Shown in pieces: positions 2,950 to 17,226 of a stretch of DNA of 32,000 nucleotides. Every line of letters starts with the position of its first letter. The stretch's first letter is position 1. Where the stretch lies: assembly GCF_000018105.1 (NCBI RefSeq), contig NC_009925.1, positions 750,001 to 782,000 of the forward strand, in the 5' to 3' direction. The translations under genes were made by a program, and so were the position numbers. This stretch comes from Acaryochloris marina MBIC11017 (lineage in GTDB: Bacteria > Cyanobacteriota > Cyanobacteriia > Thermosynechococcales > Thermosynechococcaceae). The notes beneath the pieces are model-generated. The model made no database searches. It was not told the DNA's origin and was given only the letters and a program-made list of their open reading frames with translations.

Positions 2950-3120
2950 GCTGAAGCTGTAAAGGAGGATGCCTTTATCCTAGAGGCAAAAAGACCTGTG
3001 TAAATTCCAGGAGAACACAGTGATTTTTCTCTGGTCAAATTCATTATAAATACCGAAGCGTAAGGCTTTCAGATGAGGCAAATTTGTGTATACGAACACG
3101 TTTTCCCTTGGATCACACAC

Positions 3121-3336
3121 ATGTATAATCCCTCTTTGACAGAAGAAAACCGTAATCAGGTTAGCCCCGTAATTGCACCTCGCAAAAATACGTCTCTATA
3201 TGACTGGTTAGAAGAGAATGGTCGCTTCCGCAAAAACGACAACTCCGATTTCGACTGGTCTACGGACGATGAAGAGCTGCTTTCGGAATATTCCAGCAGC
3301 AACGAAGAAGCAAGCTATGTCCCCAAGGCTGCATAA
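3121..3336 (+). CDS. Small acidic hypothetical protein (conserved cyanobacterial type, possibly DUF3134-like)
   Basis: The ORF runs 3073-3336. The internal ATG at 3121 gives MYNPSLTEENRNQVSPVIAPRK...LYDWLEENGRF followed by an acidic Ser/Glu tail. The family name is from memory only. Confidence 0.45.
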   Translation: MYNPSLTEENRNQVSPVIAPRKNTSLYDWLEENGRFRKNDNSDFDWSTDDEELLSEYSSSNEEASYVPKAA

Positions 3337-3394
3337 AACGATTGTTTGTCTTGGAAGGATATGGGTATCCCCAATCTGGACCGGTGAGATCAAC

Positions 3395-3985
3395 TCAACT
3401 GATCTTGCCAGATGTGCTTCCCATAGAATTGACGCGATCTAATAGGCTCAATAGCAGTTGATCCATCACCTGGGAAGCCTTGAGTTGCAAGGTAGCTTCA
3501 CGATGGGAGTACCATTGCCACTCTTGATACTCCTTCGGATCAAGGCAAAGGAGTGGCCTCTCTGAATCAGTCAATGCGACTAAATAGGTGAGATTGAGGC
3601 TGTGTAAGCCCCGATCCTGGGGGGCTTGCTGCCGATGGGCAAAACAGGTGGAATAGACGCCCACAAACTGGAATCGATCGGTTGTGATCGCAAGTCCTGC
3701 TTCTTCCTTCGCTTTCCGCTGGACAGCTTGTAAGGGGGACTCTCCGGCGATCATACGTCCGCCAATCACCCACCAAGATTTTTGAGGATAGGTACTGCGT
3801 TTTGCTAATAACACCTGATGTTGATGGGTAAAGACTAAATCAACACAAGTAATGACCAAATGATCCAGGGCTTGGCTAAAGACCTCTGTTGGTAATCTGG
3901 CATCAAGTTCAGCCTGATAGGTGCGTTCTGGCTCATGATAATGGGGCACCTGACCAGGAGAGTTAGGTTGCTTTGATAAAGACAT
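3395..3985 (-). CDS. NUDIX hydrolase
   Basis: The Nudix box is GGRMIAGESPLQAVQRKAKEEAGL (GX5EX7R[K]UXEEXGU, with RE changed to RK). I chose the ATG at 3985 because the longer ORF to 4096 would overlap the upstream DUF423 gene by about 100 nt. Confidence 0.8.
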   Translation of the reverse strand: MSLSKQPNSPGQVPHYHEPERTYQAELDARLPTEVFSQALDHLVITCVDLVFTHQHQVLLAKRSTYPQKSWWVIGGRMIAGESPLQAVQRKAKEEAGLAITTDRFQFVGVYSTCFAHRQQAPQDRGLHSLNLTYLVALTDSERPLLCLDPKEYQEWQWYSHREATLQLKASQVMDQLLLSLLDRVNSMGSTSGKIS

Positions 3986-3999
3986 TGCAGGAGTCCTAG

Positions 4000-4386
4000 C
4001 TAGCTGATAGGAGATGATTTTAAGGCTGCGATCGCAATGCATCCCCACCCGACTAAAAAGGCAACACCTCCTAATGGGGTAATGGGGCCAAACCACTTGA
4101 TCTCAGATAGGCTCAATCCATAGAGGCTGCCAGAAAATAGAACGATACCGGCCATAAAGGCATAGCCTGCCAGGGTCAGTAATCCTTCTCCTCCTTCTGC
4201 CCGACTCAACAGCAGTGATACCAGGATCAAAGCGAGAGCATGATACATCTGATACTTAGTGCCAGTCTCAAAAATCTGTTGTGACTTTTCACTAAGTTGA
4301 GCTTTGAGAGCATGGGAGGCAAAAGCCCCTGCTGCCACTGAAAGGCCACCGAAAGCAGCACCAGCCATTAGGAATATTTTCGCCAT
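4000..4386 (-). CDS. DUF423 (YgdD/UPF0382-like) small membrane protein
   Basis: 128 aa with four predicted TM helices. The N-terminus GAAFGGLSVAAGAFASHAL and the motifs YQMYHALAL and GIVLFSGSLY are typical of DUF423. Confidence 0.75.
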   Translation of the reverse strand: MAKIFLMAGAAFGGLSVAAGAFASHALKAQLSEKSQQIFETGTKYQMYHALALILVSLLLSRAEGGEGLLTLAGYAFMAGIVLFSGSLYGLSLSEIKWFGPITPLGGVAFLVGWGCIAIAALKSSPIS

Positions 4387-4723
4387 GAATTCCTGATTCT
4401 CTTGATGAAAGTAACATTATGGATCATGGCATTGTTTTAATTCATCTTTATGATCCATTCAGGCATGATGCAAGGCGCTACCCCCAAAGTCATCCTGGTG
4501 CGTTCTACCCTGGCAACCTACCTAAATATTCAATCGACCTGTACTCAATAGCTGATAGCCCCCCACAAAACATCTAAAAGATATACAGAACTACCACAAG
4601 CTTGTGGGATTGAGAACCGCGTGACTGCCAAAGAAAATCAGTAGCACTCCAATTCCCATCAGAATCCATCCGAACATTTTTCTCATCTAGGCAGCAGAGA
4701 GAAAACTCAAGAACTCCTACTTT

Positions 4724-5251
4724 TCATGATGGGTAGGGTGGAACTTGGGGCAGAATAAGCTGCATGATGGCAACATCTTGCCAGCGATCGGCAACATGCC
4801 CAACTTCTCTTTGCACACCGACCATTTCAAACCCAAAGCTTTTGTGGAAGGCAATGCTGTCATCATTGGTCGCGACAATTTTTACGACTACGTGGTGATA
4901 TCCTAGCCCAACCACCTTTTGCAGTAGAGCCGTTTGCATCATTTTCCCTAACCCTTGGCCCTTTTCTGCAAAGGTCAGATAAATCGATGTTTCGCAGCAG
5001 ATCCGATACCCAGGGCGATCGCTATATTGTTTGACGATGCCCCAGCCTAGAACCTGCTGTTGACGCTCAATGACCAACAGACATTCGCGATCGCAAAATT
5101 TATTCACCCAGGCTTGAATATCTGACGCTTCGAATTGACGAGTATCGAAGGTGATACTGCCTGTTGCGATCGCTTCATTGTATATAGATGCGATCGCAGC
5201 ATAATCCGCTGATGTACTTGCTCGAATCTGAACCGGCTCTGAGTCTGACAT
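4724..5251 (-). CDS. GNAT N-acetyltransferase, phosphinothricin/methionine-sulfoximine acetyltransferase-like
   Basis: IRASTSADYAAIASIYNEAIATGSITFDT is a PAT-like N-terminus. The acetyl-CoA loop is EKGQGLGKMM. The ATG at 5251 is preferred over the TTG at 5272. Confidence 0.8.
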   Translation of the reverse strand: MSDSEPVQIRASTSADYAAIASIYNEAIATGSITFDTRQFEASDIQAWVNKFCDRECLLVIERQQQVLGWGIVKQYSDRPGYRICCETSIYLTFAEKGQGLGKMMQTALLQKVVGLGYHHVVVKIVATNDDSIAFHKSFGFEMVGVQREVGHVADRWQDVAIMQLILPQVPPYPS

Positions 5252-5521
5252 GTAAGGCGTTTTCCCTGGCAACTCAAGCCAGTTCTAGCACGTCTAGGTA
5301 GACAAGTTATACCTCCCTCATGGATAGGAAAATATCTCTCCTAGGGCAGGGGGACTAATGAGGGAAGTACAAAGTTCCAAATAAGATTATTTTTGGGAAT
5401 AAAGTACTAAAATTTTAATTATAAGACTCTAATAGATTATTTCGTTTCCATTTATTTAAGCTGGAACCAAAATAATCGGCTATCCATCATTTATCACTGA
5501 AAATCATTTTTGGTGACCTGT

Positions 5522-6883
5522 ATGATGACACCCTCACAACAATGGAAATCTTCAACCGCTGCACTTTTGAGTTTGGGTCTCTCTTCTGCATTGGCTAGTC
5601 CCTTCCTAGTTCAATCCACCGTTCTTGCCCAAACTCGCTTTTCAGATACTACGGGGCATTGGGCTCAAAGCTGTATTCAATCCCTGGCCCAACGCAACAT
5701 TATCAATGGCTATCCCAATGGAGAGTTTCGTCCCAATGCTCCAGTGACTCGGGCCGAGTACGCAATAATGGTCGTCAATGCATTTCCCAATGCAGCTCGA
5801 AGCCGCAGTGCTCGTTCCTTTACAGATGTTCGGTCTAACTTTTGGGCAGCCAACGCCATTCGGACCGCCTCCCAAACAGGATTCCTGACAGGATATCCCA
5901 GTGGTGAGTTTCGGCCTGCTCAGCAAATTCCTCGAACTCAGGTATTGGTTTCTCTCAATAACGGTTTAGGATATTCGCCCACAGGATCCATTAATGCCAC
6001 CCTCGGCAACACCTATGCCGATGCCAGTGCGATACCGAATTATGCACGAGGAGCGATCGCATCCGCAACCCAACGCCAGCTTGTCGTCAACTATCCCGAT
6101 GTCCGCTACCTGAATCCCAACAGCCGAGCCACTCGCGCTGAAGTGGCCGCCTTCCTTTGCCAAACCCTGAAAAACCCTCAACAAGCCTCTCTTATTTCTG
6201 GGAATTACATTGCTGGTTCCCCAGCAGAAGGCCTACAAGCCAGAACCGATATTCCAGTTGTCTACGATGTCGCCAAGAAAGTGATTGTCTCTCCCCAAGA
6301 GACAGCTCCTTTAAACGTCAAAGTCACCGAAGATATCAAAGATAATCGGGGAAATACAGTTATTCCTAGAGGCAGCTCTATTCTGGGAGAACTGCAACCT
6401 CAAGGGAGTGGCACTCAATTTGTAGCCCGTGAGGTCGTGATTGATGGCAACTCCTACCCATTAGAAGCTTCGTCTGGAATTATTACCCGTACTGTGAGTG
6501 CCCGCGATCCGAATTTATTAGCCCTAGCCCGCAATGCAGTATTAGGGGCTGGCGCGGCAGCTGGCCTGTCCACTGTCATTGGTGATGGCACCATCACAGC
6601 GGAAAAAGTACTGACTGGAGCCGCTGTGGGAACGGCGATTGAAACCAATCGGAATCGTCCTTGGCAATCGGTGGCGAGAGACTCTGCCCTGGGAGCCGCA
6701 GCAGCGGCTGGCTTATCCGCCGTTATTGGCGATCGCACTATTACAGCCGAAAAAATTCTGGCCGGGGCCGCTTCGGGGGCCACCATTGGTGGGGTGATTG
6801 ATCCAGCCCTACAGGAAGTGATTGTGATTGATTCACAAACTGACCTCAACCTACAGCTAGAGCACCCCTTTAGCTTGAGCTAG
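5522..6883 (+). CDS. Secreted S-layer-homology (3x SLH) domain protein with a duplicated Gly/Ala-rich C-terminal module
   Basis: There is a signal peptide followed by three SLH repeats (FSDTTGHWA..GYPNGEFRPNAPVTRAE; FTDVRSNFWA..GYPSGEFRP; YADASAIPNYA..ATRAEVA). The C-terminus carries two 38-aa repeats with a 49-aa period. The ATG at 5522 is preferred over the TTG at 5510. Confidence 0.85.
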   Translation: MMTPSQQWKSSTAALLSLGLSSALASPFLVQSTVLAQTRFSDTTGHWAQSCIQSLAQRNIINGYPNGEFRPNAPVTRAEYAIMVVNAFPNAARSRSARSFTDVRSNFWAANAIRTASQTGFLTGYPSGEFRPAQQIPRTQVLVSLNNGLGYSPTGSINATLGNTYADASAIPNYARGAIASATQRQLVVNYPDVRYLNPNSRATRAEVAAFLCQTLKNPQQASLISGNYIAGSPAEGLQARTDIPVVYDVAKKVIVSPQETAPLNVKVTEDIKDNRGNTVIPRGSSILGELQPQGSGTQFVAREVVIDGNSYPLEASSGIITRTVSARDPNLLALARNAVLGAGAAAGLSTVIGDGTITAEKVLTGAAVGTAIETNRNRPWQSVARDSALGAAAAAGLSAVIGDRTITAEKILAGAASGATIGGVIDPALQEVIVIDSQTDLNLQLEHPFSLS

Positions 6884-6907
6884 CGATTGCGCTTGATTCA
6901 TTGACGG

Positions 6908-6956
6908 GCCAGTCAGTCTTTATGCCAGTGGAGAGACTGACTGGCTCTCCCTTTTT
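6908..6956 (+). terminator. Rho-independent terminator of the SLH gene
   Basis: There is a perfect 12-bp stem, GCCAGTCAGTCT (6908-6919) paired with AGACTGACTGGC (6934-6945), with a 14-nt loop. It is followed by TCTCCCTTTTT. Confidence 0.8.
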
Positions 6957-7405
6957 AAAGGTGATTTTCTCCAAGCAAATAAATATAAATTCAGCTTTTC
7001 TGGCTGCTTAGGATAAAAATCATCTGTTTATAGTCAGCTATGGCTTTTAATCCATAGTATTCAAAATATATCTCTTAGCCGAATATACTAATCACTTTAA
7101 AATGAGTAATGACTAGTAATTATTACTCAAAAAATTAGATTTATGTGATCTCACTAAGAGGCAATATTTTATTTCATAAAATAATATTTATGTTTTTTTA
7201 TGAAACTCTATAGTAAGCACTTTTTCACCAAGTCTTTAATGCTTATTCATGTAATTTTCATCACTTCACGAAATTAAAATCATCTGTAATAATCACTAAC
7301 GTTGGTGTGAGCATCTGCATTATTCTGCATACATTCTGATTGCAGAAAAATATTTCTTAGAAGAAAAAATGAATTCAAGTACTTCACCTATATGAAGGAA
7401 TCAAG

Positions 7406-8431
7406 ATGAAAAAAGTCCTGGCCCACATTAATCTAAAGAAGAAAGAATTTGCGCAGCTACCATTGTTTGAGTTCCTTCAAGATCAAACCATCGATCCAAG
7501 GCAAAGATTGGCCTTTGCACCTTGCATTGCACCGTTTGCCATGAGTTTTGGAGAACTCAATCGCAACGTCTTTCGGGTTGAGCCAACGACAGATGAAATC
7601 CAGAAGATTATCAATGTCCATACCTATGAAGATGATCATCATTGGCCATGGCTACTGAGTGATATGGAAAAGCTAAGGTTTAATCCCACCTTGAGCTTTA
7701 ATCAATCCTTAGAGTTTCTCTGGAATCAGCAAACGGTTAATGCCCGGGCAGCCGCATACTATCTGTACAATGCGACCTATAAAGCCAGTCCCGTGCGGAA
7801 GTTCACGATTATTGAGGCGACAGAATCCACTGGGAATATTTTGTTAGCCAATTCTGCAATGCCCGCTCACGAACTGTCTCAAGAGACCAATGATGACTAT
7901 GAGTATTTTGGGGCGGGTCATTTAGAAGTGGATACGGGGCATACCTTTTGCTCTACAGAGTCTCGTCAAGTCATTGAAGCGGTCGAGCTTTCGGAAGAGG
8001 AGCGTGACGCTGCGATTGTTGCAGTCGATCAGACCTTTGACGTGTTTACGAACTTAATGAATGAGTTATTGGCGTTTGCCCAGCAAGCCAATATTCAGCC
8101 TGAAGCTCCGCTAGAACATGAATATCTTGACTATCTCAAAGGGGTCAACCATAACAATCTCTATACTGACCGCCAACCCACCTCAGCGCCGTCGATACCG
8201 GTCAATACCAATCTCAAACCTCTAGGTTGTTATCTATTGGAAGCGAATTTAGTGACTCATGCTCAGCTTGAGGAAGTCTTACAAGAGCAACAATCAGACC
8301 ATAAGCCAATTGGTAATCTGTTAGCTGAAAAAGGCTGGATTCACCAGAATACAGTCGAGTACATGATGAAAAATATTATTCAGCCTCACCGAAAGTATCA
8401 ACAGCAAGCATCTATTATCAATGTCGGCTAA
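7406..8431 (+). CDS. Hypothetical protein: heme-oxygenase-like diiron (HDO-like) N-terminal domain fused to an MshEN/T2SSE_N-like C-terminal domain
   Basis: 341 aa with an AAGGA ribosome-binding site before the ATG. Candidate metal ligands are E75-x2-H78, E137/E140 and H172-x3-D176-x2-H179. The C-terminal residues 272-324 form two 24-aa xLGxxLLxxGLLxxxxLxxxLxxQ-like repeats separated by 5 aa. The gene and both flanks are visibly AT-rich. Confidence 0.6.
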   Translation: MKKVLAHINLKKKEFAQLPLFEFLQDQTIDPRQRLAFAPCIAPFAMSFGELNRNVFRVEPTTDEIQKIINVHTYEDDHHWPWLLSDMEKLRFNPTLSFNQSLEFLWNQQTVNARAAAYYLYNATYKASPVRKFTIIEATESTGNILLANSAMPAHELSQETNDDYEYFGAGHLEVDTGHTFCSTESRQVIEAVELSEEERDAAIVAVDQTFDVFTNLMNELLAFAQQANIQPEAPLEHEYLDYLKGVNHNNLYTDRQPTSAPSIPVNTNLKPLGCYLLEANLVTHAQLEEVLQEQQSDHKPIGNLLAEKGWIHQNTVEYMMKNIIQPHRKYQQQASIINVG

Positions 8432-8758
8432 GGCTCGCATAAATTAGATACCGAGATATGGCTCAGATCTTGTTATCGGCAGGACAAAATTTACTAGTCA
8501 TCCAAAAATTTTCGTTTAATTCGATCTAGATCTCTTTTTCTTGAATGGGATTAGAGCGATGAGATCTAATGATTCAATTCATTAGCCATATCTTGATGTC
8601 AATCTAATTAGAATTCTGTATTTACCAATAAAAAAATCTTTCTATCTTGCAATAATTTTATCAGAAATCTTTTTCTACATCAATCTATATTTTTTATTTT
8701 ATCTAACTATTTTTCAGTAAACTTTTGCATGTTATAACCTCTTTCTAGGAGCGATAAG

Positions 8759-10135
8759 ATGGTTAGCCAGAAAATATTTTCGTTGGCACATCAAGTTAGT
8801 GAAATGGGCATCCCGTTTGATCGAGATGCCGCAGTATTGGCAGCCGCAAGCACAGATTTTGGTCACCTTATTCAGGGGCAGTCGCAGTTAGTCGTTCAAC
8901 CTCGACAGGGAGAAGATGTTGTGGCCTTGATGCAGAAGGCCAATCGATATCAGCTGCCGATCACTCTAAGGGGCAAAGGGTGTAGCCAAAATGGGCAGTC
9001 CATCAGTCCCAGGGGTATGACTTTAAATACGTCGCGACTAGATGATATTCGCTACTCTAAAGCGTTGCCGCAGCAGGTGACCTGTGGTGCAGGTACGACC
9101 TGGCGACAACTGGTTGCGATGCTGAAGCCCCATCAATGTCTACCTTGTATGATGCCGCTCAATCTCAATCTGACCATAGGGGGCACGCTATCGGCGGGAG
9201 GATTTGGGGCTAATAGTCATCGGTATGGTCCTGCGATCGCAAACGTAATCGCCCTAGAAGTGGTGACGGGTGCAGGAGAACGACTTTGGTGTACTCCTGA
9301 TAAACACCCAGATCTCTATGCTGCAGTTCTGGGGGGACAGGGGCGATGTGCGGTCATCCTTTCAGCAACTCTAGCCACCCGACCGATTAAACCTCAGATA
9401 CGCACCTATTTTCTGGTCTACGAAGATCTAGAAACCTGGATTAGGGACCAGCATCAGTTGTGCGATCGCATCGATTACCTAGAAGGATTTTGCTCTGCAA
9501 ATATGCAGGGCTTACAGAAAACGCCGACAGGTCGACGTCCTCTAGTGCAGTGGTTGTGGGGGCTACATGTCAGCGTAGAGTTTGATCCTGCAACGCCTCC
9601 CCAGCAAGAACAGGTATTAGCAGGCTTGAATTACCACAAGCTCCTCTATATCGAAGATGACGATACGGCTGACTATGCTGCTCGTTACGATCTACGATTT
9701 CAATCCATGCAGGCCAGCGGGGCTTGGCAGCAGCTTCATCCCTGGTTTGACTGTCTATTGCCCGTAAGTACTGCAACAGAGATCATCCCTCAAATTCTAG
9801 AGATTTTGCCCCCCTGCTTTGGCGATGGTCATCGCGTGCTGTGGGTTGCTGAACGACCAACCCCTCGTTTTCTAATGAAACCTGAACAAGCCTTTCTATT
9901 TGCCGTATTGCCGACAGGCATTCCCCTTTCGTTAAAGACTCAAGCATTGACGGCACTAGAACAAGCGCATCAGTTAGTGATAAAAGCAGGCGGCAAACGC
10001 TATTTATCCGGCTGGTTGGGAGAGATTACCCCTGACTTTTGGTCTCAACACTTTGGGCCTAATTGGCCAGCGTGGCAGCAGGCTAAAGCCACCTTCGACC
10101 CCAATCATGTCCTTTGCTCTAAGTTATTTCCCTAG
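8759..10135 (+). CDS. FAD-linked oxidase of the cytokinin dehydrogenase (CKX)-like / PCMH family
   Basis: 458 aa with an AGGAG site 9 nt upstream. FAD_binding_4-type motifs are LRGKGCSQNGQS, GAGTTW and IGGTLSAGGFG. CKX-like C-terminal motifs are IDYLEGF and LHPWFDCLLP. Confidence 0.75.
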   Translation: MVSQKIFSLAHQVSEMGIPFDRDAAVLAAASTDFGHLIQGQSQLVVQPRQGEDVVALMQKANRYQLPITLRGKGCSQNGQSISPRGMTLNTSRLDDIRYSKALPQQVTCGAGTTWRQLVAMLKPHQCLPCMMPLNLNLTIGGTLSAGGFGANSHRYGPAIANVIALEVVTGAGERLWCTPDKHPDLYAAVLGGQGRCAVILSATLATRPIKPQIRTYFLVYEDLETWIRDQHQLCDRIDYLEGFCSANMQGLQKTPTGRRPLVQWLWGLHVSVEFDPATPPQQEQVLAGLNYHKLLYIEDDDTADYAARYDLRFQSMQASGAWQQLHPWFDCLLPVSTATEIIPQILEILPPCFGDGHRVLWVAERPTPRFLMKPEQAFLFAVLPTGIPLSLKTQALTALEQAHQLVIKAGGKRYLSGWLGEITPDFWSQHFGPNWPAWQQAKATFDPNHVLCSKLFP

Positions 10136-10196
10136 CCAAGGCTTTTTCATAACACCACCCGCAAAAGAACCTCAGAGAATCTGGCGGGCAAATGAT

Positions 10197-10958
10197 ATGA
10201 ATGGAACAGACCCTTCCTCTTTTCCTAGCTCCATGTCAACGTCTCCTCCTTATGTGCTGCGTCCCGCCCAAGCCCAAGATAAATGGGCCATCCAACAAAT
10301 GCTTTGGCAATTCACCTGGGATGAGGGCATTGGGCTAGATGTGCGACTCTTTAGCTTTGCCTTTTTCCGTTTAGGGTTGGTGGGGCTGGCTTTGTGGTTA
10401 CAGATCTACTGGCGTCAATCGACAACGATGGTCGATGTGCAGTTTATTTTGGCCATCGCGAATGTGGCGACAGCAGGGCTGGGCTTGTACCTCGCCAGTC
10501 TGGTAATGGGTCAGTTGATAATGCGATTTTTTGGGGTTGTCTTTAACTGGTCTCGATTTCAGGTGATTGAGCAAGCAGGAACCCTAGCAGGCTGTGCACT
10601 ACTCAATGCCTATAGCAGCCATAGTGAGCTAGCCTATGTTTTTGTCCAATCTCAATTCCGTCATCAGGGGTGGGGGTCTCAAATCGTCCAAACCCTGATC
10701 CAGGAATCTGATAAAGATGTGTATCTTGCCTGTAAACCTCAGGTGGTGCCTTTTTATGAACGGCAAGGATTTACGGTGCAGTCCTGGCTCGATCTCCCTC
10801 CTGGTGTCAAACGCTGTTTCCGCATCTTCCGTCCCCATCCTCGGTTATGGGGATTTAAGTTGAACTTTATGCAATGTCCCATTGCACCGACAGCCATAGC
10901 ACCTGAATCAATTGCTGTGGAAACCCCTCACCTATCAGAATCTACCCCCCACTCATAA
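10197..10958 (+). CDS. GNAT family N-acetyltransferase with an internal pair of predicted TM helices
   Basis: The acetyl-CoA motif is VFVQSQFRHQGWGSQIVQTL, followed by FYERQGF. Hydrophobic segments FAFFRLGLVGLALWLQIYW and ILAIANVATAGLGLYLASLVMGQLIM sit between the N-terminal and core GNAT elements. I chose the ATG at 10197 (10233 is an alternative) because the ORF from 10053 overlaps the preceding gene. Confidence 0.7.
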   Translation: MNGTDPSSFPSSMSTSPPYVLRPAQAQDKWAIQQMLWQFTWDEGIGLDVRLFSFAFFRLGLVGLALWLQIYWRQSTTMVDVQFILAIANVATAGLGLYLASLVMGQLIMRFFGVVFNWSRFQVIEQAGTLAGCALLNAYSSHSELAYVFVQSQFRHQGWGSQIVQTLIQESDKDVYLACKPQVVPFYERQGFTVQSWLDLPPGVKRCFRIFRPHPRLWGFKLNFMQCPIAPTAIAPESIAVETPHLSESTPHS

Positions 10959-11978: not shown

Positions 11979-12164
11979 ATGGATTTATTTAGACCGTTAC
12001 TTTTAGTCATAATTCTTTTCTTCCTAACGGTGGTCATGTGTGCATTAGGTAGCCTAATCGCCGTTGCTAACCCTTTACTTTTCATTCTGGGAATCATGGG
12101 CGGTATGCTCGGAGCCCTGATGGTGATGGACTTTATTGATACCCACTGGCTTCATAAGTGGTAA
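11979..12164 (+). CDS. Small two-TM membrane protein (hypothetical)
   Basis: 61 aa with two clear hydrophobic helices. Its stop codon TAA directly abuts the GTG start of nfi. Confidence 0.45.
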   Translation: MDLFRPLLLVIILFFLTVVMCALGSLIAVANPLLFILGIMGGMLGALMVMDFIDTHWLHKW

Positions 12165-12854
12165 GTGCAAGTTCCTAAGATTGAGAATTGGCCCCAAACG
12201 GCTCAAGACGCTATTCAACTCCAAAAACAACTTTGTTCCCAGGTCATCCCCACCGACGACTTTAATGAAGTGCGCTTTGTCGCGGGAGTGGATGTAGGTT
12301 TTGAAAACCAAGGTAAAACGACTCGCGCTGCGATCGCAGTTCTGACTTGGCCTGAGCTAAAACTGCACGAAACGACGATTGCTCGCCAACCCACTAAGTT
12401 TCCCTACATTCCAGGCTTGCTATCGTTTCGAGAAATTCCAACGGTTTTAGCAGCTTTAGCCCAAATTCAAACCACCCCAGATCTCCTGCTTTGTGATGGT
12501 CAGGGGCTTGCCCATCCCCGACGTTTTGGGATTGCCTGCCATTTAGGCGTGCTGGCGGATCTACCGGCGATTGGTGTAGCCAAATCACGTTTGGTGGGAA
12601 AGCACGAGCCTGTAGATCAAACCCGAGGGAATTGGCAGCCTCTAATCGATAAGGACGAACGGATTGGGGCAGTCCTCCGCACTCGCCCTAATACAAAGCC
12701 CCTGTACATTTCTTTGGGACATCGAATTAGTTTAGACAGTGCCATTGAGTATGTAATGAGCTGTACCACCCGCTATCGGCTACCGGAGACTACCCGTTGG
12801 GCCGACAAGTTAGCGTCTTCCAAAATCCCCCCCAACCCTGAAAAGAGGAGTTGA
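12165..12854 (+). CDS. nfi: Endonuclease V (deoxyinosine 3' endonuclease)
   Basis: Motifs are VAGVDVGFE, PGLLSFREIP, CDGQGLAHPRRFGIACHLGV, IGVAKS and SLGHRISL. It has a GTG start. Confidence 0.88.
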   Translation: MQVPKIENWPQTAQDAIQLQKQLCSQVIPTDDFNEVRFVAGVDVGFENQGKTTRAAIAVLTWPELKLHETTIARQPTKFPYIPGLLSFREIPTVLAALAQIQTTPDLLLCDGQGLAHPRRFGIACHLGVLADLPAIGVAKSRLVGKHEPVDQTRGNWQPLIDKDERIGAVLRTRPNTKPLYISLGHRISLDSAIEYVMSCTTRYRLPETTRWADKLASSKIPPNPEKRS

Positions 12855-13105
12855 AATCTCCGAGCTGAGCGAAGTCGTAGTCTTTGACTCCAGGTGTATT
12901 CCAGATTTAAGCAACGTTTGTCAGAATTAATGTCCAGGCATCAGAATCCTGCAATCTTTTTTACCTAGACTATAGGATTCATACGCTAAGAATGTGTGTA
13001 GAGAGAAGTACTAACTGCTAAAGTGTCACACATCTATCCAGATAAGGCATATTATCCAATATATGAATCGAATTTCTTTGAAATGGATGTTATCTGTCAA
13101 CGAGC

Positions 13106-13411
13106 ATGAGTCTAAGCAGTCACGCTAACGTCTACAACACTTGCCTCCGTATCCTCCGTGAACGTGGCTTCGAGTTGCGAGTCGATGGAGACTTGACAGA
13201 TGACGGGGCGGTTCCGGCCGACCATTTCTGGTTCGCAACGAATAACGAGGTTCAACTTACCGCTGATAATCCAATTGAACTACTTGGACTGGCGGCAATT
13301 TATGATCGCAAGAAACCAGTGGCCGACGAACCGTACTGGTGGGTAGTTGAAGGTAATGATATCTGGGATGAGCTATATGAAAACGCATGGGGGCCTTTTG
13401 GTGATGACTAA
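13106..13411 (+). CDS. Hypothetical small acidic protein (orphan)
   Basis: 101-aa ORF, Asp/Glu/Trp-rich, with no motif I recognise. Its codon usage looks richer in CGN/CCG than neighbouring genes. Confidence 0.45.
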   Translation: MSLSSHANVYNTCLRILRERGFELRVDGDLTDDGAVPADHFWFATNNEVQLTADNPIELLGLAAIYDRKKPVADEPYWWVVEGNDIWDELYENAWGPFGDD

Positions 13412-13644
13412 CTCACCTTGTATTCGAGGTGGTGCAGCCTGATCATGAGTGTGTTGTCACTCAACACAACGGTGCTGTACACGATGTCATATCGGACAAC
13501 TGTGAACATTTTGACATGCCGTGACATCCTTATCACAGCGGATAGATGACAACCTTATGCACTGAAACTGCCACCCGATCGTGTTCACATGGAGCATCCC
13601 TCACGGCGGCCCGGTGATGCTGATCGTTATGTATTGAGCCGAGC

Positions 13645-14019
13645 ATGCATGTTTTCTCAACAGTAAAACCCCAACCTCAGTTAGCAGACCCTTCAGATGA
13701 AAGGGATTTAGAGGCATTAGGATTAGAGATTTTGACTAATTCTGATGAGGTTATATTAGTCTTGCTGATTAGATACTACAGCCTAGATCCGGTCAACGTT
13801 GAAGGTGATAATTTGTTCTACAGTCTTGAAGAACTAATTGATACTACTGAGAACTACTACGGGATTCCTCGGGATAAGTGGAGGCTGTCTTCGGAAACAG
13901 AAAGTGGAGAGTTGGGTGTAAAAGTAATGGAAGCAGCGAGAAAAATATATCCTTGTGACAGTGGGTCCATCAGATTTTTCCCGACTGACGACGAATACTT
14001 TTCCAATAGTGAGAAGTGA
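13645..14019 (+). CDS. Hypothetical small acidic protein (orphan)
   Basis: 124-aa ORF that is acidic and has no recognisable motif. It is AT-richer than ORF 13106. Confidence 0.45.
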   Translation: MHVFSTVKPQPQLADPSDERDLEALGLEILTNSDEVILVLLIRYYSLDPVNVEGDNLFYSLEELIDTTENYYGIPRDKWRLSSETESGELGVKVMEAARKIYPCDSGSIRFFPTDDEYFSNSEK

Positions 14020-14311
14020 TTGTCTTAACTTCGCTAATTTTTCGTGCTACGTTCGAATTCCTGACCGCCTCACCCCGACCCTCGCAAACCATATACAACA
14101 TTAAAGCTGGACAACGATTCCAATAATTCTGGAATGTACACCAGGGATTTGAAGTTGGTACTGTATTTTCAGGTACGTCCCCAGGTTAAATATTGCCGTT
14201 GATTTGGCTGATCCGAGGGACTCTATACCCGTTAAGCTATTGAATATTAAGCCCGTTTCCTCCTTGATGTGATTTGACGGTAGGGGAGGATGAATCGTTA
14301 GAGCGATACCC

Positions 14312-15409
14312 ATGTCTGCCAAGCACCCCTCCAAGCCCAATTTGGGTCGTCTAGAGAAAGTCGATGTCACCCAATATTGGCAGTCCGCCACTGAGGATTT
14401 TGCGCCTTGGCTATGCCAGGAGGAGAATATGCAGCTTTTAGGTGAAGCCATTGGTCTTTCTTTGGAAGTGGTTTTAGATGCGCAGCAAATGTGCGATCGC
14501 CAAGGGGATTTGCTCTGTCGGCAGGCGGGCACCAAAAACTGGATTTTAATTGGCAGTCAGCTTTGCCCCACCGATGAGCAGCATTTCGGGCAGCTACTGA
14601 CGGAAGGGGCTGATATTAGTGCAGCAGGCATTATTTGGATTGCCAGTCAGTTTTCGGCAGAACATCTCAAACTGCTCAACTGGCTCAATCAACATGCCCA
14701 ACCCTCCCTGCAATTTTGGGGCGTAGAAATCGAGCTATGGCAAATTGGCAAAACCGCAATGGCTGCCCAGTTTAATCTGGTCTCACCAGCTGAAGAATCG
14801 ACTGAAGATGCCCCAGATGACCCCACCGAGTTGGATCTAGAGAGTCAGCTCGAACAACAAGCCGAAGCATTGCCTGATCCTGAGCCAGAGCAGGAGGAGC
14901 CAGAACCGGAGCCATTAACAGCAGAACAAGAACAGCATGTCGCGTTTTGGTCGGAACTCTGCGATCAGCTAGAACAACGGGGCAGTGTGGTCAAAGCCGT
15001 TGCTCCACCTCCGGATGATCATATTGATTTTGCCATTGGAAGAGCGGGATTTTTGCTCTCTGCCCATTTGAATCGAGAGCATACATCTCTAGCCATTGAG
15101 CTGCGGTTATTTGATGAAGATGCCCAAGCCCATTACGAGTTACTCGCCGCGCAACAGGAACAGATTGAATCCGAACTGGGATTTGCCCTGAACTGGGAGA
15201 ATCTGGTTTCCGAATGTGTAATCTACTGCCCTCTCCCCGAGACGGATATCAATGCCACAGACCAATGGCCCGACTATATTGATTGGCTGTGTGGCGGGTT
15301 GGAATGTTTTCATCTCACCTTTGCCGATCTGGTGCAGTCTCTAAATGCCGATGACTATCATCGAGGACACCACCATCCAGTCCCTGATGTATTGAGTTTG
15401 CCAAGTTGA
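14312..15409 (+). CDS. NucS/PD-(D/E)xK-like N-terminal domain plus DUF4268 C-terminal domain protein
   Basis: The N-terminus reads LGRLEKVDVTQYW..EDFAPWL..ENMQLLGEAIGLSLE...GDLLC...WILIGSQLCPTDEQHFGQLLT...IIWIASQFSAEHLKLLNWLN...FWGVEIELWQIG. This matches the conserved layout of the DUF4268-associated nuclease-like family. A PE-rich acidic linker and FWSEL.. (DUF4268-like) follow. Confidence 0.7.
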   Translation: MSAKHPSKPNLGRLEKVDVTQYWQSATEDFAPWLCQEENMQLLGEAIGLSLEVVLDAQQMCDRQGDLLCRQAGTKNWILIGSQLCPTDEQHFGQLLTEGADISAAGIIWIASQFSAEHLKLLNWLNQHAQPSLQFWGVEIELWQIGKTAMAAQFNLVSPAEESTEDAPDDPTELDLESQLEQQAEALPDPEPEQEEPEPEPLTAEQEQHVAFWSELCDQLEQRGSVVKAVAPPPDDHIDFAIGRAGFLLSAHLNREHTSLAIELRLFDEDAQAHYELLAAQQEQIESELGFALNWENLVSECVIYCPLPETDINATDQWPDYIDWLCGGLECFHLTFADLVQSLNADDYHRGHHHPVPDVLSLPS

Positions 15410-15486
15410 GATAAATATTTTATGCAATCATCAGCTATTCTGCTTCATGATTTTATGAAGGACTTTTTTGCATAGAAGGTTGAGGT

Positions 15487-16056
15487 ATGACGGCAGAGGA
15501 ACTGATGGAGCGATATGCTTCTGGAGAGAGAGATTTCACTGGCATTGAACTCCAATATGTCCGATTGAATAGAGTCGTTTTGAGTGGTGCCAACTTCAAT
15601 GGAGCTAATTTGAGAGGAATCTTTCTCGTCGATTCTGATCTGGCAGGATCGACCCTGAGACAGGCAAACTTAGTAGATTCAACATTGACCAACGTAAACT
15701 TCCAAAATGCTGATCTGACAGAAGCCGATTTATCTTGTGCCGATTTGGATCACTCCATTTTAAGGGAGGCAACCTTGGTTGGTGCTCAAATTTACCAAGC
15801 CTCTTTAAGAGGAGCCTGTCTCGCTTATGCCAACTTGAGAGGGGCTGATATGGGACAAGCTGGAGTGGATGGGGCTGACTTTACTCATGCAGATTTGCGA
15901 GATGCTTTTCTCAAAGAAGTTGCCTTTGAAGCTGACCTCTCATATGCCGATTTCAGAGGAGCTGAAACTTGGGATAATATCGAAGCTATCTTCACACCGG
16001 GCATTCTCTGTAACACCTTATTGCCTGACGGGCGTATCAGAAATGATGACTGTTGA
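15487..16056 (+). CDS. Pentapeptide-repeat protein
   Basis: It has continuous A(D/N)LXX repeats, for example ANFNGANLRGIFLVDSDLAGSTLRQANLVDSTLTNVNFQNADLTEADLSCADL. Confidence 0.88.
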   Translation: MTAEELMERYASGERDFTGIELQYVRLNRVVLSGANFNGANLRGIFLVDSDLAGSTLRQANLVDSTLTNVNFQNADLTEADLSCADLDHSILREATLVGAQIYQASLRGACLAYANLRGADMGQAGVDGADFTHADLRDAFLKEVAFEADLSYADFRGAETWDNIEAIFTPGILCNTLLPDGRIRNDDC

Positions 16057-16101
16057 TTGCCATCGTGCAAAAGACAGGCAATAAGAAAATGCTACAAACC
16101 C

Positions 16102-16147
16102 CCGATTTTACTGGAAGTTTGGCAGCACCCTCCAAATCGGCTTTTTT
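16102..16147 (+). terminator. Probable intrinsic terminator after the pentapeptide-repeat gene
   Basis: CCGATTT (16102-16108) pairs with AAATCGG (16134-16140), with an extra GGA/TCC extension. It is followed by CTTTTTT. Confidence 0.45.
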
Positions 16148-16518
16148 CTGGCCATGAAATCTCATTTTCTACTGGTGAAAGCAGCAAAACCCTAAAACGG
16201 GCTGTTTTATGATCTGAAGTTGTTGGACAATGTGATAACGAATGATGGGGTTGACTTAGCCAAGATGTTGTTGAATAAAGCCATAACCCCACGAAAGCCA
16301 TAAGCTAATATCAATTTCGTATCGAGATAAACTGTTTGACTCCAATGATTAACCTATCTTCAATGCTTTCGACGAGCTATACAGGTCATTTAGCTGGGGA
16401 ATTGGTATAACGAGGTTTTGGATAAAACCGGAAAATCGAATTTCGAGATCTGCATGATTTACCGTAAAAACTCGCACCCTTGTAAGCTACGGGTAATCGT
16501 CGAGGGTCAGTTTTCCAG

Positions 16519-17226
16519 ATGACAAAGGGACAGATTATTGCAATCGGTGGCGGTGGCTTCTCCGAGGGTTCAGAACCTGGCCTCGATTCTTACGTGTTGG
16601 AGCAGAGTGAGGCCAATATTCCCAAAGTTGGTTTTATTGGCACGGCCAGTGGTGATGCAGAACGCTATTTACTCAAGTTTTACTCTCGATTTTCTCAACT
16701 CAATTGCACCCCATCTCATCTACCCTTGTTTCGGCGGACCCCCAACTTGACTGATTGGATTATGGCTCAAGATATCATTTTCGTTGGGGGTGGCAATACG
16801 TTCAGCATGCTGGCCGTCTGGCAAGCATGGGAATTGGCCCCTTTACTGAAGGAAGCTGCAGCCCAAGGAACCATCTTGTCAGGCATTAGCGCAGGTGCAA
16901 ACTGTTGGTTTGAGTCCTGTTTAACCGATGCTAAAGCTGATGAGTTTGGCCCGCTCCAATGTCTTAATTTTCTGTCAGGAAGCTGCTGTCCTCACTATTC
17001 GTCTGAAATTGGCAGACAAAAGACCTTCGAACATCTGATTGAAACAGAAGCATTACCCCCTGGTATCGCTATTGATGATGGTGCAGCAGCCTATTTTATG
17101 GACGGCCAGCTTATCCGAATCATTTCAGGAACAGATGGTGCGGCAGTCTATTCCGTTTCTCCCACTCCCACAGGTGTAACCTCCAACCGGATTAAAGGGA
17201 TTGAGGTGGTAAATCTGGCAATATAG
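16519..17226 (+). CDS. Peptidase S51 family (dipeptidase E / cyanophycinase-like)
   Basis: Motifs are IIAIGGGGF, IGTASGD, FVGGGNTFSML and the nucleophile elbow GISAGANCW. Confidence 0.78.
   Translation: MTKGQIIAIGGGGFSEGSEPGLDSYVLEQSEANIPKVGFIGTASGDAERYLLKFYSRFSQLNCTPSHLPLFRRTPNLTDWIMAQDIIFVGGGNTFSMLAVWQAWELAPLLKEAAAQGTILSGISAGANCWFESCLTDAKADEFGPLQCLNFLSGSCCPHYSSEIGRQKTFEHLIETEALPPGIAIDDGAAAYFMDGQLIRIISGTDGAAVYSVSPTPTGVTSNRIKGIEVVNLAI

Follow-up and report, generated by a model that had tools for sequence, protein, structure and literature searches.

Two described systems stand closest to the protein considered here. The first comprises AetD and SktA, heme-oxygenase-like diiron oxidases (HDOs) that act on tryptophans: AetD (8TWW, 8JI3), a nitrile synthase, converts 5,7-dibromo-tryptophan to the corresponding indole-3-carbonitrile in the biosynthesis of aetokthonotoxin (PMC11611611, PMC10654658), and SktA, an oxygen-dependent skatole synthase of the cyanobacterial strain Nostoc punctiforme NIES-2108, turns (5-bromo-)tryptophan into (5-bromo-)skatole along with cyanide and bicarbonate (PMC11869266). 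The second is the MshEN domain, which consists of an N-terminal subdomain, MshEN_N, and an alpha/beta subdomain, MshEN_C (T2SSE_N1), and spans about 145 residues in full; MshEN_N of Vibrio cholerae MshE (53 residues, 5HTL; PMC5013675) and the GSPII-B domain of PilF are four-helix bundles with a motif-spacer-motif plan that bind cyclic diguanylate (c-di-GMP) and reside on secretion or pilus ATPases carrying MshEN_C/T2SSE_N1. Here we describe AM1_0779, a gene lying in a 32,000-nucleotide (nt) window of the Acaryochloris marina MBIC11017 genome, whose product joins a clear homologue of AetD and SktA to a C-terminal MshEN_N module lacking the second subdomain. Coordinates refer to positions within this window, residues are numbered from the ATG of the gene, and the features of AM1_0779 and AM1_0780 located below lie on the forward strand. 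According to the list of open reading frames (ORFs), its translation and an exact-sequence look-up, AM1_0779 is a complete gene (7406 to 8431) of 341 codons plus stop, identical to ABW25823.1, WP_012161406.1 and UniProt B0CFD6, where it is labelled 'hypothetical protein'. The protein consists of an HDO domain (residues 1-234; 7406 to 8107), a disordered linker (residues 235-271; 8108 to 8218) and the MshEN_N module, in that order.

The nature of the N-terminal domain emerges from several independent comparisons. A homology search returned 239 relatives, essentially all of them cyanobacterial and none of them named, and a profile built from 36 relatives matched AetD in the PDB with an E value of 1.3e-76 over residues 1-234. 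BLASTP aligned AM1_0779 with AetD at 38% identity and without gaps; in a multiple alignment of the HDO domain the identity amounts to 47.5% with SktA (from locus L034) and 35.5% with AetD. The AlphaFold2 model of the whole protein has a mean predicted local distance difference test score (pLDDT) of 87.4, most of the HDO domain exceeding 90, and when searched with Foldseek it retrieves 21 AetD chains (entries 8tww and 8ji7 among them) with E values below 2e-11, template-modelling (TM) scores of 0.88-0.93 and root-mean-square deviations (rmsd) of 1.8-2.4 Å, followed by PolF, UndA, CADD, BesC, TenA and heme oxygenase at 9-15% identity. The modelled fold is thus the seven-helix heme-oxygenase-like bundle, and the superfamily assignment made in a preliminary description of this gene, derived from the letters of the sequence without database searches, proves right because profile, BLASTP, AlphaFold2 and Foldseek agree. 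The same description placed the enzyme close to CADD, UndA, BesC and SznF, a kinship that survives at the level of fold and fails at the level of sequence family: CADD, UndA and BesC are matched by Foldseek with E values of 0.01-0.04, 9-15% identity and target-normalised TM scores of 0.51-0.74, and neither they nor SznF appear among the PDB sequence-profile matches up to an E value of 10. The family proper is that of AetD and SktA, which the description did not name, and the match to it lies far beyond chance. Pfam, run on the whole protein, returned a sub-threshold match to DUF4388 alone (E 0.087), the N-terminal domain having no Pfam model.

The metal site can be read off from AetD, for which two independent crystal structures place Fe1 between H79, H172, E176 and the amine and carboxylate of the substrate, and Fe2 between D76, E140, E176 and H179 (PMC11611611, PMC10654658), with H172, E176 and H179 forming an HX3EX2H motif (PMC11611611). 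Since the BLASTP alignment is free of gaps, AetD residue numbers carry over directly, and AM1_0779 has D76, H79, E140, H172, D176 and H179 at the corresponding positions, differing from AetD only in the aspartate at 176. By homology these six residues are the predicted iron ligands: D76 (Fe2) and H79 (Fe1) on core helix 1 (codons D76 to H79, 7631 to 7642); E140 (Fe2) on core helix 2 (7823 to 7825), a prediction strengthened by its invariance; and H172 (Fe1), D176 (bridging carboxylate) and H179 (Fe2) within the H172-x3-D176-x2-H179 stretch of core helix 3 (7919 to 7942). In the 36-sequence alignment E75, D76, H79, E140, H172 and H179 are invariant, position 176 being D or E in all 39 tabulated sequences, so that a set of three histidines and three carboxylates is conserved in the family with D76 and H79 as its helix-1 members. 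The segments HTYEDDHHW (72-80), IIEATE (135-140) and GHLEVDTGH (171-179) do lie where the preliminary description had placed them, and E140, H172, D176 and H179 stand as it proposed; the helix-1 pair that it chose, E75 and H78, is displaced by one residue. Neither H78 nor E137, which it also counted among the ligands, is upheld by the homologues, where position 78 may be H, N, C or Y and position 137 E, D, T or S. Judged against AetD, E75, H78 and E137 are predicted not to bind iron, E75 being invariant and yet not a ligand in AetD.

As to the reaction catalyzed, Y167 of AetD contacts the substrate carboxylate and F44 and F48 stack on the indole; all three residues are present in AM1_0779 and are near-universal across the family. 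What distinguishes the two characterised enzymes are positions 139, 142 and 214, occupied by M, A and S in AetD and by T, T and F in SktA (PMC13108848), S214 of AetD touching the 7-bromine of the substrate. AM1_0779 has T139, T142 and F214, which are the SktA residues and not those of AetD, T139 and T142 being second-sphere residues that flank E140. It shares with SktA, moreover, the six ligands, F44, F48 and Y167, a cyanobacterial host and an adjoining flavoenzyme gene; SktA differs in being a stand-alone protein of 237 residues without MshEN_N, and AetD likewise has no C-terminal extension, its gene residing in a toxin cluster. On the basis of the SktA-type residues and overall similarity we infer cleavage between C-alpha and C-beta in preference to the making of a nitrile; an aromatic amino acid, L-tryptophan without a 7-halogen, is the most likely substrate, and the predicted products are a skatole-type compound, cyanide and CO2. 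As is characteristic of AetD/SktA-type enzymes, turnover of tryptophan would require Fe(II) and O2 and pass through a peroxo-diferric intermediate triggered by the substrate. The aromatic alpha-amino acid would occupy a hydrophobic pocket lined by F44, F48, L146 and F214, its amine and carboxylate would chelate Fe1 while Y167 grips the carboxylate, and this chelation would set off O2 activation at the D76/H79/E140/H172/D176/H179 centre, leading to C-alpha/C-beta cleavage and the release of the skatole-type product with cyanide and CO2. The product would then probably be handed to the cytokinin-dehydrogenase-like (CKX-like) flavoenzyme AM1_0780, presumed to be co-transcribed.

The C-terminal module is identified by the curated NCBIfam model NF053729 ('c-di-GMP_motif, MshE-related', 53 positions), which matches residues 272-319 with 45.5 bits (cutoff 38 bits) and an E value of 4.7e-12, again far beyond chance; models of NfrB-type glycosyltransferases match the C-terminus weakly as well (NCBIfam NF008411, E 4e-4). 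In the PDB the family profile finds PilF (9.4e-10), MshE (3e-4) and also the N-termini of PilB. AlphaFold2 folds residues 265-341 into a four-helix bundle with pLDDT values of 90-95 over the motifs, and the top Foldseek match of the isolated C-terminus is c-di-GMP-bound MshE (5htl_B; rmsd 0.7 Å over 47 columns, E 0.3), followed by c-di-GMP-bound PilF GSPII-B structures; the top 15 are nearly all N-terminal domains of MshE, PilF and PilB, mostly with c-di-GMP bound, and the small size of the domain keeps the Foldseek E values weak (0.3 or higher). The module reads as motif I (residues 272-295, PLGCYLLEANLVTHAQLEEVLQEQ; 8219 to 8290), a spacer, QSDHK, assigned by position (residues 296-300; 8291 to 8305) and having the canonical length of 5 residues (PMC5013675), motif II (residues 301-324, PIGNLLAEKGWIHQNTVEYMMKNI; 8306 to 8377), which is covered by the family profile in addition to NF053729, and a continuation of helix 4 to the C-terminus in the AlphaFold2 models (residues 325-341; 8378 to 8428). 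These models have a single long final helix, at 314-340 in the full-length model and at 50-75 in the 77-residue one. The two 24-residue repeats set exactly 5 residues apart, as originally described, are therefore genuine. The four-helix bundle would hang from the enzyme on a flexible linker of about 40 residues, whose pLDDT is 41-60 across residues 231-270 and below 50 at 251-264, and whose sequence and length differ between homologues.

The resemblance extends to MshEN_N and no further. PF05157, the Pfam model of MshEN, gave no match in AM1_0779 up to an E value of 10, and a mere 17 residues follow motif II, where MshEN_C/T2SSE_N1 would have to lie; the module is therefore MshEN_N alone, and of the original proposal of an MshEN/T2SSE_N domain the MshEN-type double motif holds (NF053729, Foldseek) and the full domain does not. 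Taken literally, then, the preliminary description, namely a generic CADD/UndA/BesC/SznF-like oxidase with E75 and H78 as ligands and a full MshEN/T2SSE_N domain, is highly improbable. Its fold likeness to UndA, CADD, BesC and PolF is real, and it had both the Hx3Dx2H motif and E140 right; however, it is rejected in its details by the AetD structures, in which the helix-1 ligands are D76 and H79, by the gap-free alignment and by the family variation at positions 78 and 137, and the low identity to CADD, UndA and BesC, the silence of PF05157 and the missing MshEN_C all speak against it.

Whether the module can bind c-di-GMP depends on how its departures from the canonical motif are weighed. In MshE, O6 and N7 of guanine are recognised by the backbone amides of Gly3 and of the residue after it, which discriminates against adenine; a hydrophobic triad (Leu2, Leu17' and Leu21') is packed against each base, Arg1 makes a cation-pi stack with the guanine, and Gln24 hydrogen-bonds the ribose-phosphate backbone (PMC5013675). 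Hydrophobic substitutions lower affinity more than 10-fold, whereas changing Arg9 or Gln32 reduces it by about 5-fold at most; G11L and G40I abolish stabilisation by the ligand (PMC5013675). The strict pattern RLGxx(L/V/I)(L/V/I)xxG(L/V/I)(L/V/I)xxxxLxxxLxxQ is found in neither motif of AM1_0779. Motif I departs from it by P1 and N10, with K271 ahead of it, and keeps its hydrophobic positions, G3 and Q24; motif II departs by P1, V17, M21 and I24, with K300 ahead of it. Both retain L/I at position 2, G3, and hydrophobic residues at 6, 7, 11, 12, 17 and 21. The caveats that the preliminary description attached to the repeats, Pro for Arg1 in both and Asn for Gly10 in the first, are thus accurate, and Ile for Gln24 in motif II has to be added to them. 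AM1_0779 accordingly shares with MshE and PilF GSPII-B the Gly3, the positions of the hydrophobic triad and the Gln24 of motif I, and differs from them in Pro1 (twice), Asn10 and Ile24.

Position statistics over 93 MshEN_N instances tied to the AetD/SktA-type enzyme family show strict or conservative retention of G3, of the hydrophobic residues at 2, 17 and 21 and of the Gln24 of motif I, and the positions so preserved are those that Wang et al. found most important (PMC5013675), whose relaxed search motif also permits Pro at position 1. In motif I, moreover, Pro1 is preceded by K or R in 50 of 55 instances, as against 7 of 30 where position 1 is itself R or K, and AM1_0779 has the preceding lysine at both motifs; the pattern is best read as a compensatory shift that would leave a positive charge at the entrance to the site. 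On these grounds binding of c-di-GMP by AM1_0779 appears plausible, its likelihood falling a little short of even. A further reading is that the module binds some other small anion, such as another cyclic dinucleotide, guanosine tetra- or pentaphosphate ((p)ppGpp) or a nucleotide-like metabolite, and that the asymmetry of its motifs is adapted to that ligand. Motif II does differ systematically from motif I in the family, position 24 never being Gln, positions 10-11 being almost always 'GW' and position 21 being Met, and the asymmetry is widespread, since among 289 related motif-pair instances position 24 of motif II is more often L, W or F than Q; against this, Gly3, which reads guanine in MshE (PMC5013675), is kept in both motifs and the MshEN literature examined offers no precedent, so that we regard a different ligand as improbable.

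The association of the module with this enzyme family is recurrent. We collected 80 genome and 80 metagenome loci which, together with the window, contain 166 HDO genes, and MshEN_N lies in the same ORF in 24 of these (22 non-redundant in the tree); as these genes come from independent assemblies and the fusion recurs in dozens of protein clusters, an assembly or gene-fusion artefact is rejected. A single origin of the fusion was considered and rejected as well, for in a neighbour-joining tree the fused forms stand mostly among the early branches, interleaved with stand-alone ones (the tree being rough, distance-based and without bootstrap, and hence indicative only). MshEN_N is not confined to the oxidase: it forms the N-terminus of an O-methyltransferase encoded directly after the HDO-MshEN_N gene in two loci (Altericista L002, 9351-10601; L083, 9203-9730), the C-terminal end of a Pyr_redox_3 flavoprotein encoded after an unfused HDO (L084, 3028-4809), two copies within an HDO-Pyr_redox_3 fusion of 890 amino acids (L131/L132, 8001-10673) and a 91-residue ORF of its own that adjoins an HDO gene (L088, 2632-2907). 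One tag is thus shuffled among the enzymes of one pathway, which argues for its importance to the pathway, and the pattern fits shared regulation by a ligand and mutual docking alike.

Docking leads to a rival account, according to which MshEN_N is a degenerate, nucleotide-free bundle that tethers the oxidase to the other tagged pathway enzymes or to a PilZ-like or signalling partner, building a metabolon or localising the cyanide-releasing reaction without c-di-GMP and leaving the enzyme assignment as it is. This account, which we hold to be a serious though minority possibility, would explain why several enzymes of a cluster are tagged, as in the two loci where HDO-MshEN_N is followed by a tagged O-methyltransferase, and it sits well with the loss of both Arg1 residues and of the motif II Gln24 in AM1_0779, the latter residue being missing family-wide. 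It has a precedent for an MshEN-type protein interface in the complex of the PilB N-terminus with PilZ (7lkm), which is among the fold matches, and the commonest partners of the subtype to which the module belongs are scaffold and signalling domains (DUF4388, TPR, pentapeptide and FHA in 65 longer proteins). What a docking bundle would not obviously need, however, are an invariant Gly3 in both motifs, the Gln24 of motif I and the lysines that compensate for Pro1, and the module exceeds the cutoff of a model curated for c-di-GMP-binding motifs; besides, docking and nucleotide binding are compatible with each other. As for the Pro1/non-Gln24 subtype at large, it numbers 831 representative clusters at E values up to 1e-3, the 65 longer members considered are mostly fused to DUF4388 (PATAN), TPR, pentapeptide or FHA, and its four-helix unit is matched by the Pfam models DUF2949 and FumaraseC_C too.

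The explanation that in our opinion accounts best for these observations, and that we put forward tentatively, is that AM1_0779 is an SktA-like diiron oxidase that cleaves tryptophan, and that a stand-alone MshEN_N tail couples its activity or its assembly to c-di-GMP; most likely the tail would make what the enzyme does, how it assembles or which partners it contacts depend on the second messenger, in the way of the C-terminal MshEN of NfrB. Several points weigh against it. The SktA-like product assignment has three residues and overall similarity as its entire basis. With Pro at position 1 of both motifs the guanine-stacking arginines are gone, Gly10 of motif I has become Asn, and with Ile in place of the motif II Gln24 its hydrogen bonds with the ribose-phosphate backbone can no longer form; indeed position 24 of motif II is V, I, L or F, and never Gln, in 93 of the 93 family instances. 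Experience with related domains counsels caution, as small deviations abolish binding in the GSPII-A domain of PilF, where restoring the consensus does not suffice for rescue (PMC12002112), and PilB_3 of D. geothermalis shows no detectable binding, although it is likened to the present module without its motif sequence; no cyanobacterial MshEN or MshEN_N has binding or activity data (PMC12448109, PMC10124867). The disordered linker of about 40 residues offers no obvious allosteric route to the active site, none of the HDOs investigated to date requires a protein effector (PMC13108848), and the 327 nt that separate AM1_0779 from AM1_0780 leave room for separate transcription of the presumed pathway partner.

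For the coupled enzyme thus favoured, two further proteins are instructive. NfrB of Escherichia coli, reported to be a c-di-GMP-activated glycosyltransferase (PMC8669469) and so named in its NCBIfam model, has the same layout of an enzyme followed by a C-terminal MshEN; it differs in being a membrane glycosyltransferase and in carrying a full MshEN, as given in Table 4 of Wang et al. (PMC5013675). The second is AM1_1657, listed as 'UNK-TrxB-MshEN_N' for Acaryochloris and Pseudanabaena in Supplementary Table 4 of the same study (PMC5013675), which comes from the same organism and has the same MshEN_N subtype as AM1_0779, its type of architecture differing by an additional flavoprotein domain and two MshEN_N copies. 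Judging by the architecture of L131/L132 rather than by its own N-terminus, the 'UNK' of AM1_1657 is most likely an AetD-like HDO domain, which went unrecognised as such in the 2016 listing.

The gene that follows AM1_0779 in the window is AM1_0780 (8759 to 10135), labelled 'FAD-binding oxidoreductase' in the exact-sequence look-up and recognised through the Pfam domains FAD_binding_4 and Cytokin-bind as an oxidase of the cytokinin dehydrogenase type that is linked to flavin adenine dinucleotide (FAD), its best PDB relatives being the plant cytokinin dehydrogenases (E 2e-37). The intergenic gap is 327 nt here and 486 nt in an Acaryochloris metagenome-assembled genome (L001), and the succession of an HDO-MshEN_N gene and a CKX-like gene recurs with gaps of 33-52 nt in three further lineages (52 nt in L006, 35 nt in L161/L162 of P0008 and 33 nt in L164/L165 of P0021), the HDOs of the CKX-paired loci being 43-75% identical to AM1_0779. 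The CKX-like oxidase is the conserved neighbour in the AM1_0779 subclade and probably its operon and pathway partner. P0016 has no CKX-like neighbour, and the pairing is therefore frequent rather than universal. A promoter and terminator scan of 6800-10300 gave counts no better than those of shuffled sequence, with no forward-strand terminator between the two genes, and is therefore uninformative on operon structure. By analogy with the oxidation of benzylic methyl groups by enzymes of the vanillyl-alcohol oxidase/p-cresol methylhydroxylase type, one might guess that AM1_0780 could oxidise the methyl group of skatole. We also observed that residues 71-79 of AM1_0780, RGKGCSQNG, present G-C-S in place of the G-H-S found in the aligned plant cytokinin dehydrogenases, the histidine of which we take to be the site of covalent FAD attachment; L001, L161, L164 and L165 share the cysteine, and L006 has Asn there. 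The exchange of His for Cys suggests that the flavin linkage in AM1_0780 may be different or absent.

The surroundings of AM1_0779 differ from those of SktA, whose neighbours are a tryptophan halogenase and a flavin-dependent monooxygenase (FMO) and whose cluster is bordered by giant Ser/Thr-kinase/GAF/His-kinase genes; a tryptophan halogenase, an FMO and a giant kinase were sought in the 32-kb window and none was found. Rfam and ARAGORN found nothing in the window, neither a c-di-GMP riboswitch nor a tRNA. Elsewhere in the family, 92 of the 166 AetD/SktA-family genes have giant multidomain sensors of roughly 1,500-2,000 amino acids (Pkinase, AAA_16, GAF, HisKA and HATPase_c) no farther than 3 kb away, for instance at L014:1686-7025, L034:1620-7478 and 12101-16672, and L020:1603-7677. 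This association extends over several orders of cyanobacteria and goes unmentioned in the description of the three-gene cluster in the SktA paper (PMC11869266); giant genes border the published skt cluster on both sides, one of them, in BLAST cluster c14, without a domain scan. Other signalling genes occur in individual loci: a hybrid PAS-HisKA-HATPase-REC kinase directly after the CKX-like gene of L161 (8590-11982), with two REC-containing kinases upstream (2977-5493), and a GGDEF-EAL gene about 5 kb downstream of the HDO-MshEN_N operon of L163 (9031-9746). Within the window, a GNAT ORF (10053 to 10958; TTG start, 301 amino acids) shares, as mechanically listed, 83 nt with the end of AM1_0780, its true start probably lying further downstream since the orthologue in L001 has 237 amino acids, and an upstream SLH-domain protein (5510-6883) contains an internal near-duplicate of about 35 amino acids, GAGAAAGLSTVIGDGTITAEKVLTGAA and GAAAAAGLSAVIGDRTITAEKILAGAA.

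Part of what is described here was already in the literature. Residues 264-341 of AM1_0779 were printed in 2016 in an alignment of MshEN_N domains from A. marina proteins (PMC5013675 supplement), and the protein appears in Supplementary Table 3 of that study, in the first of two sub-columns of a table that has the header 'Predicted c-di-GMP binding' (PMC5013675). The nature of the N-terminal domain was not recognised at the time, AetD and SktA having been characterised in 2023-2025, and the SktA paper, in turn, states that no function is known for any other homologue of AetD and makes no mention of fusions (PMC11869266). Among the papers searched we found none pairing AetD with c-di-GMP; the search for AM1_0779 yielded a spurious match alone, and nothing relevant on MshEN in cyanobacteria or Acaryochloris. 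The earlier assertion that no such case had been described must therefore be narrowed: it appears to hold for the link between the enzyme and c-di-GMP, and it does not hold for the C-terminus, listed as MshEN_N in 2016. While each part is known, the combination of an AetD-type enzyme with MshEN_N, and the spread of the latter over a pathway, appear to have been previously undescribed or uninterpreted.

These findings provide a 'hypothetical protein' with a functional hypothesis, and the pairing of an HDO with a CKX-like oxidase would add a new pathway flavour to the AetD/SktA family, whose characterised members yield a toxin precursor, or skatole together with cyanide. HDOs are held to gate O2 activation through the substrate only (2026 review, PMC13108848), so that a second-messenger receptor built into the protein would bring a new principle of regulation to this rapidly growing class of enzymes and make AM1_0779, if the coupling is real, the first effector-gated heme-oxygenase-like diiron enzyme. 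Cyanobacteria possess many c-di-GMP cyclases and few validated receptors (PMC12448109, PMC10124867), and AM1_0779, being small and soluble and having an assayable enzymatic read-out, would be a convenient test case for the Pro1/non-Gln24 subtype of MshEN_N. The giant Ser/Thr-kinase/GAF/His-kinase neighbours elsewhere in the family hint, moreover, that products of the AetD/SktA type may join a signalling circuit. The most far-reaching version of this proposal, which we consider unlikely as it stands, is that in Acaryochloris and its kin c-di-GMP acts post-translationally through MshEN_N tags to switch on or assemble a pathway from tryptophan to a volatile skatole-type compound and cyanide; were it true, the production of small molecules or volatiles would constitute a new output of c-di-GMP signalling, as against motility, secretion and polysaccharide synthesis.

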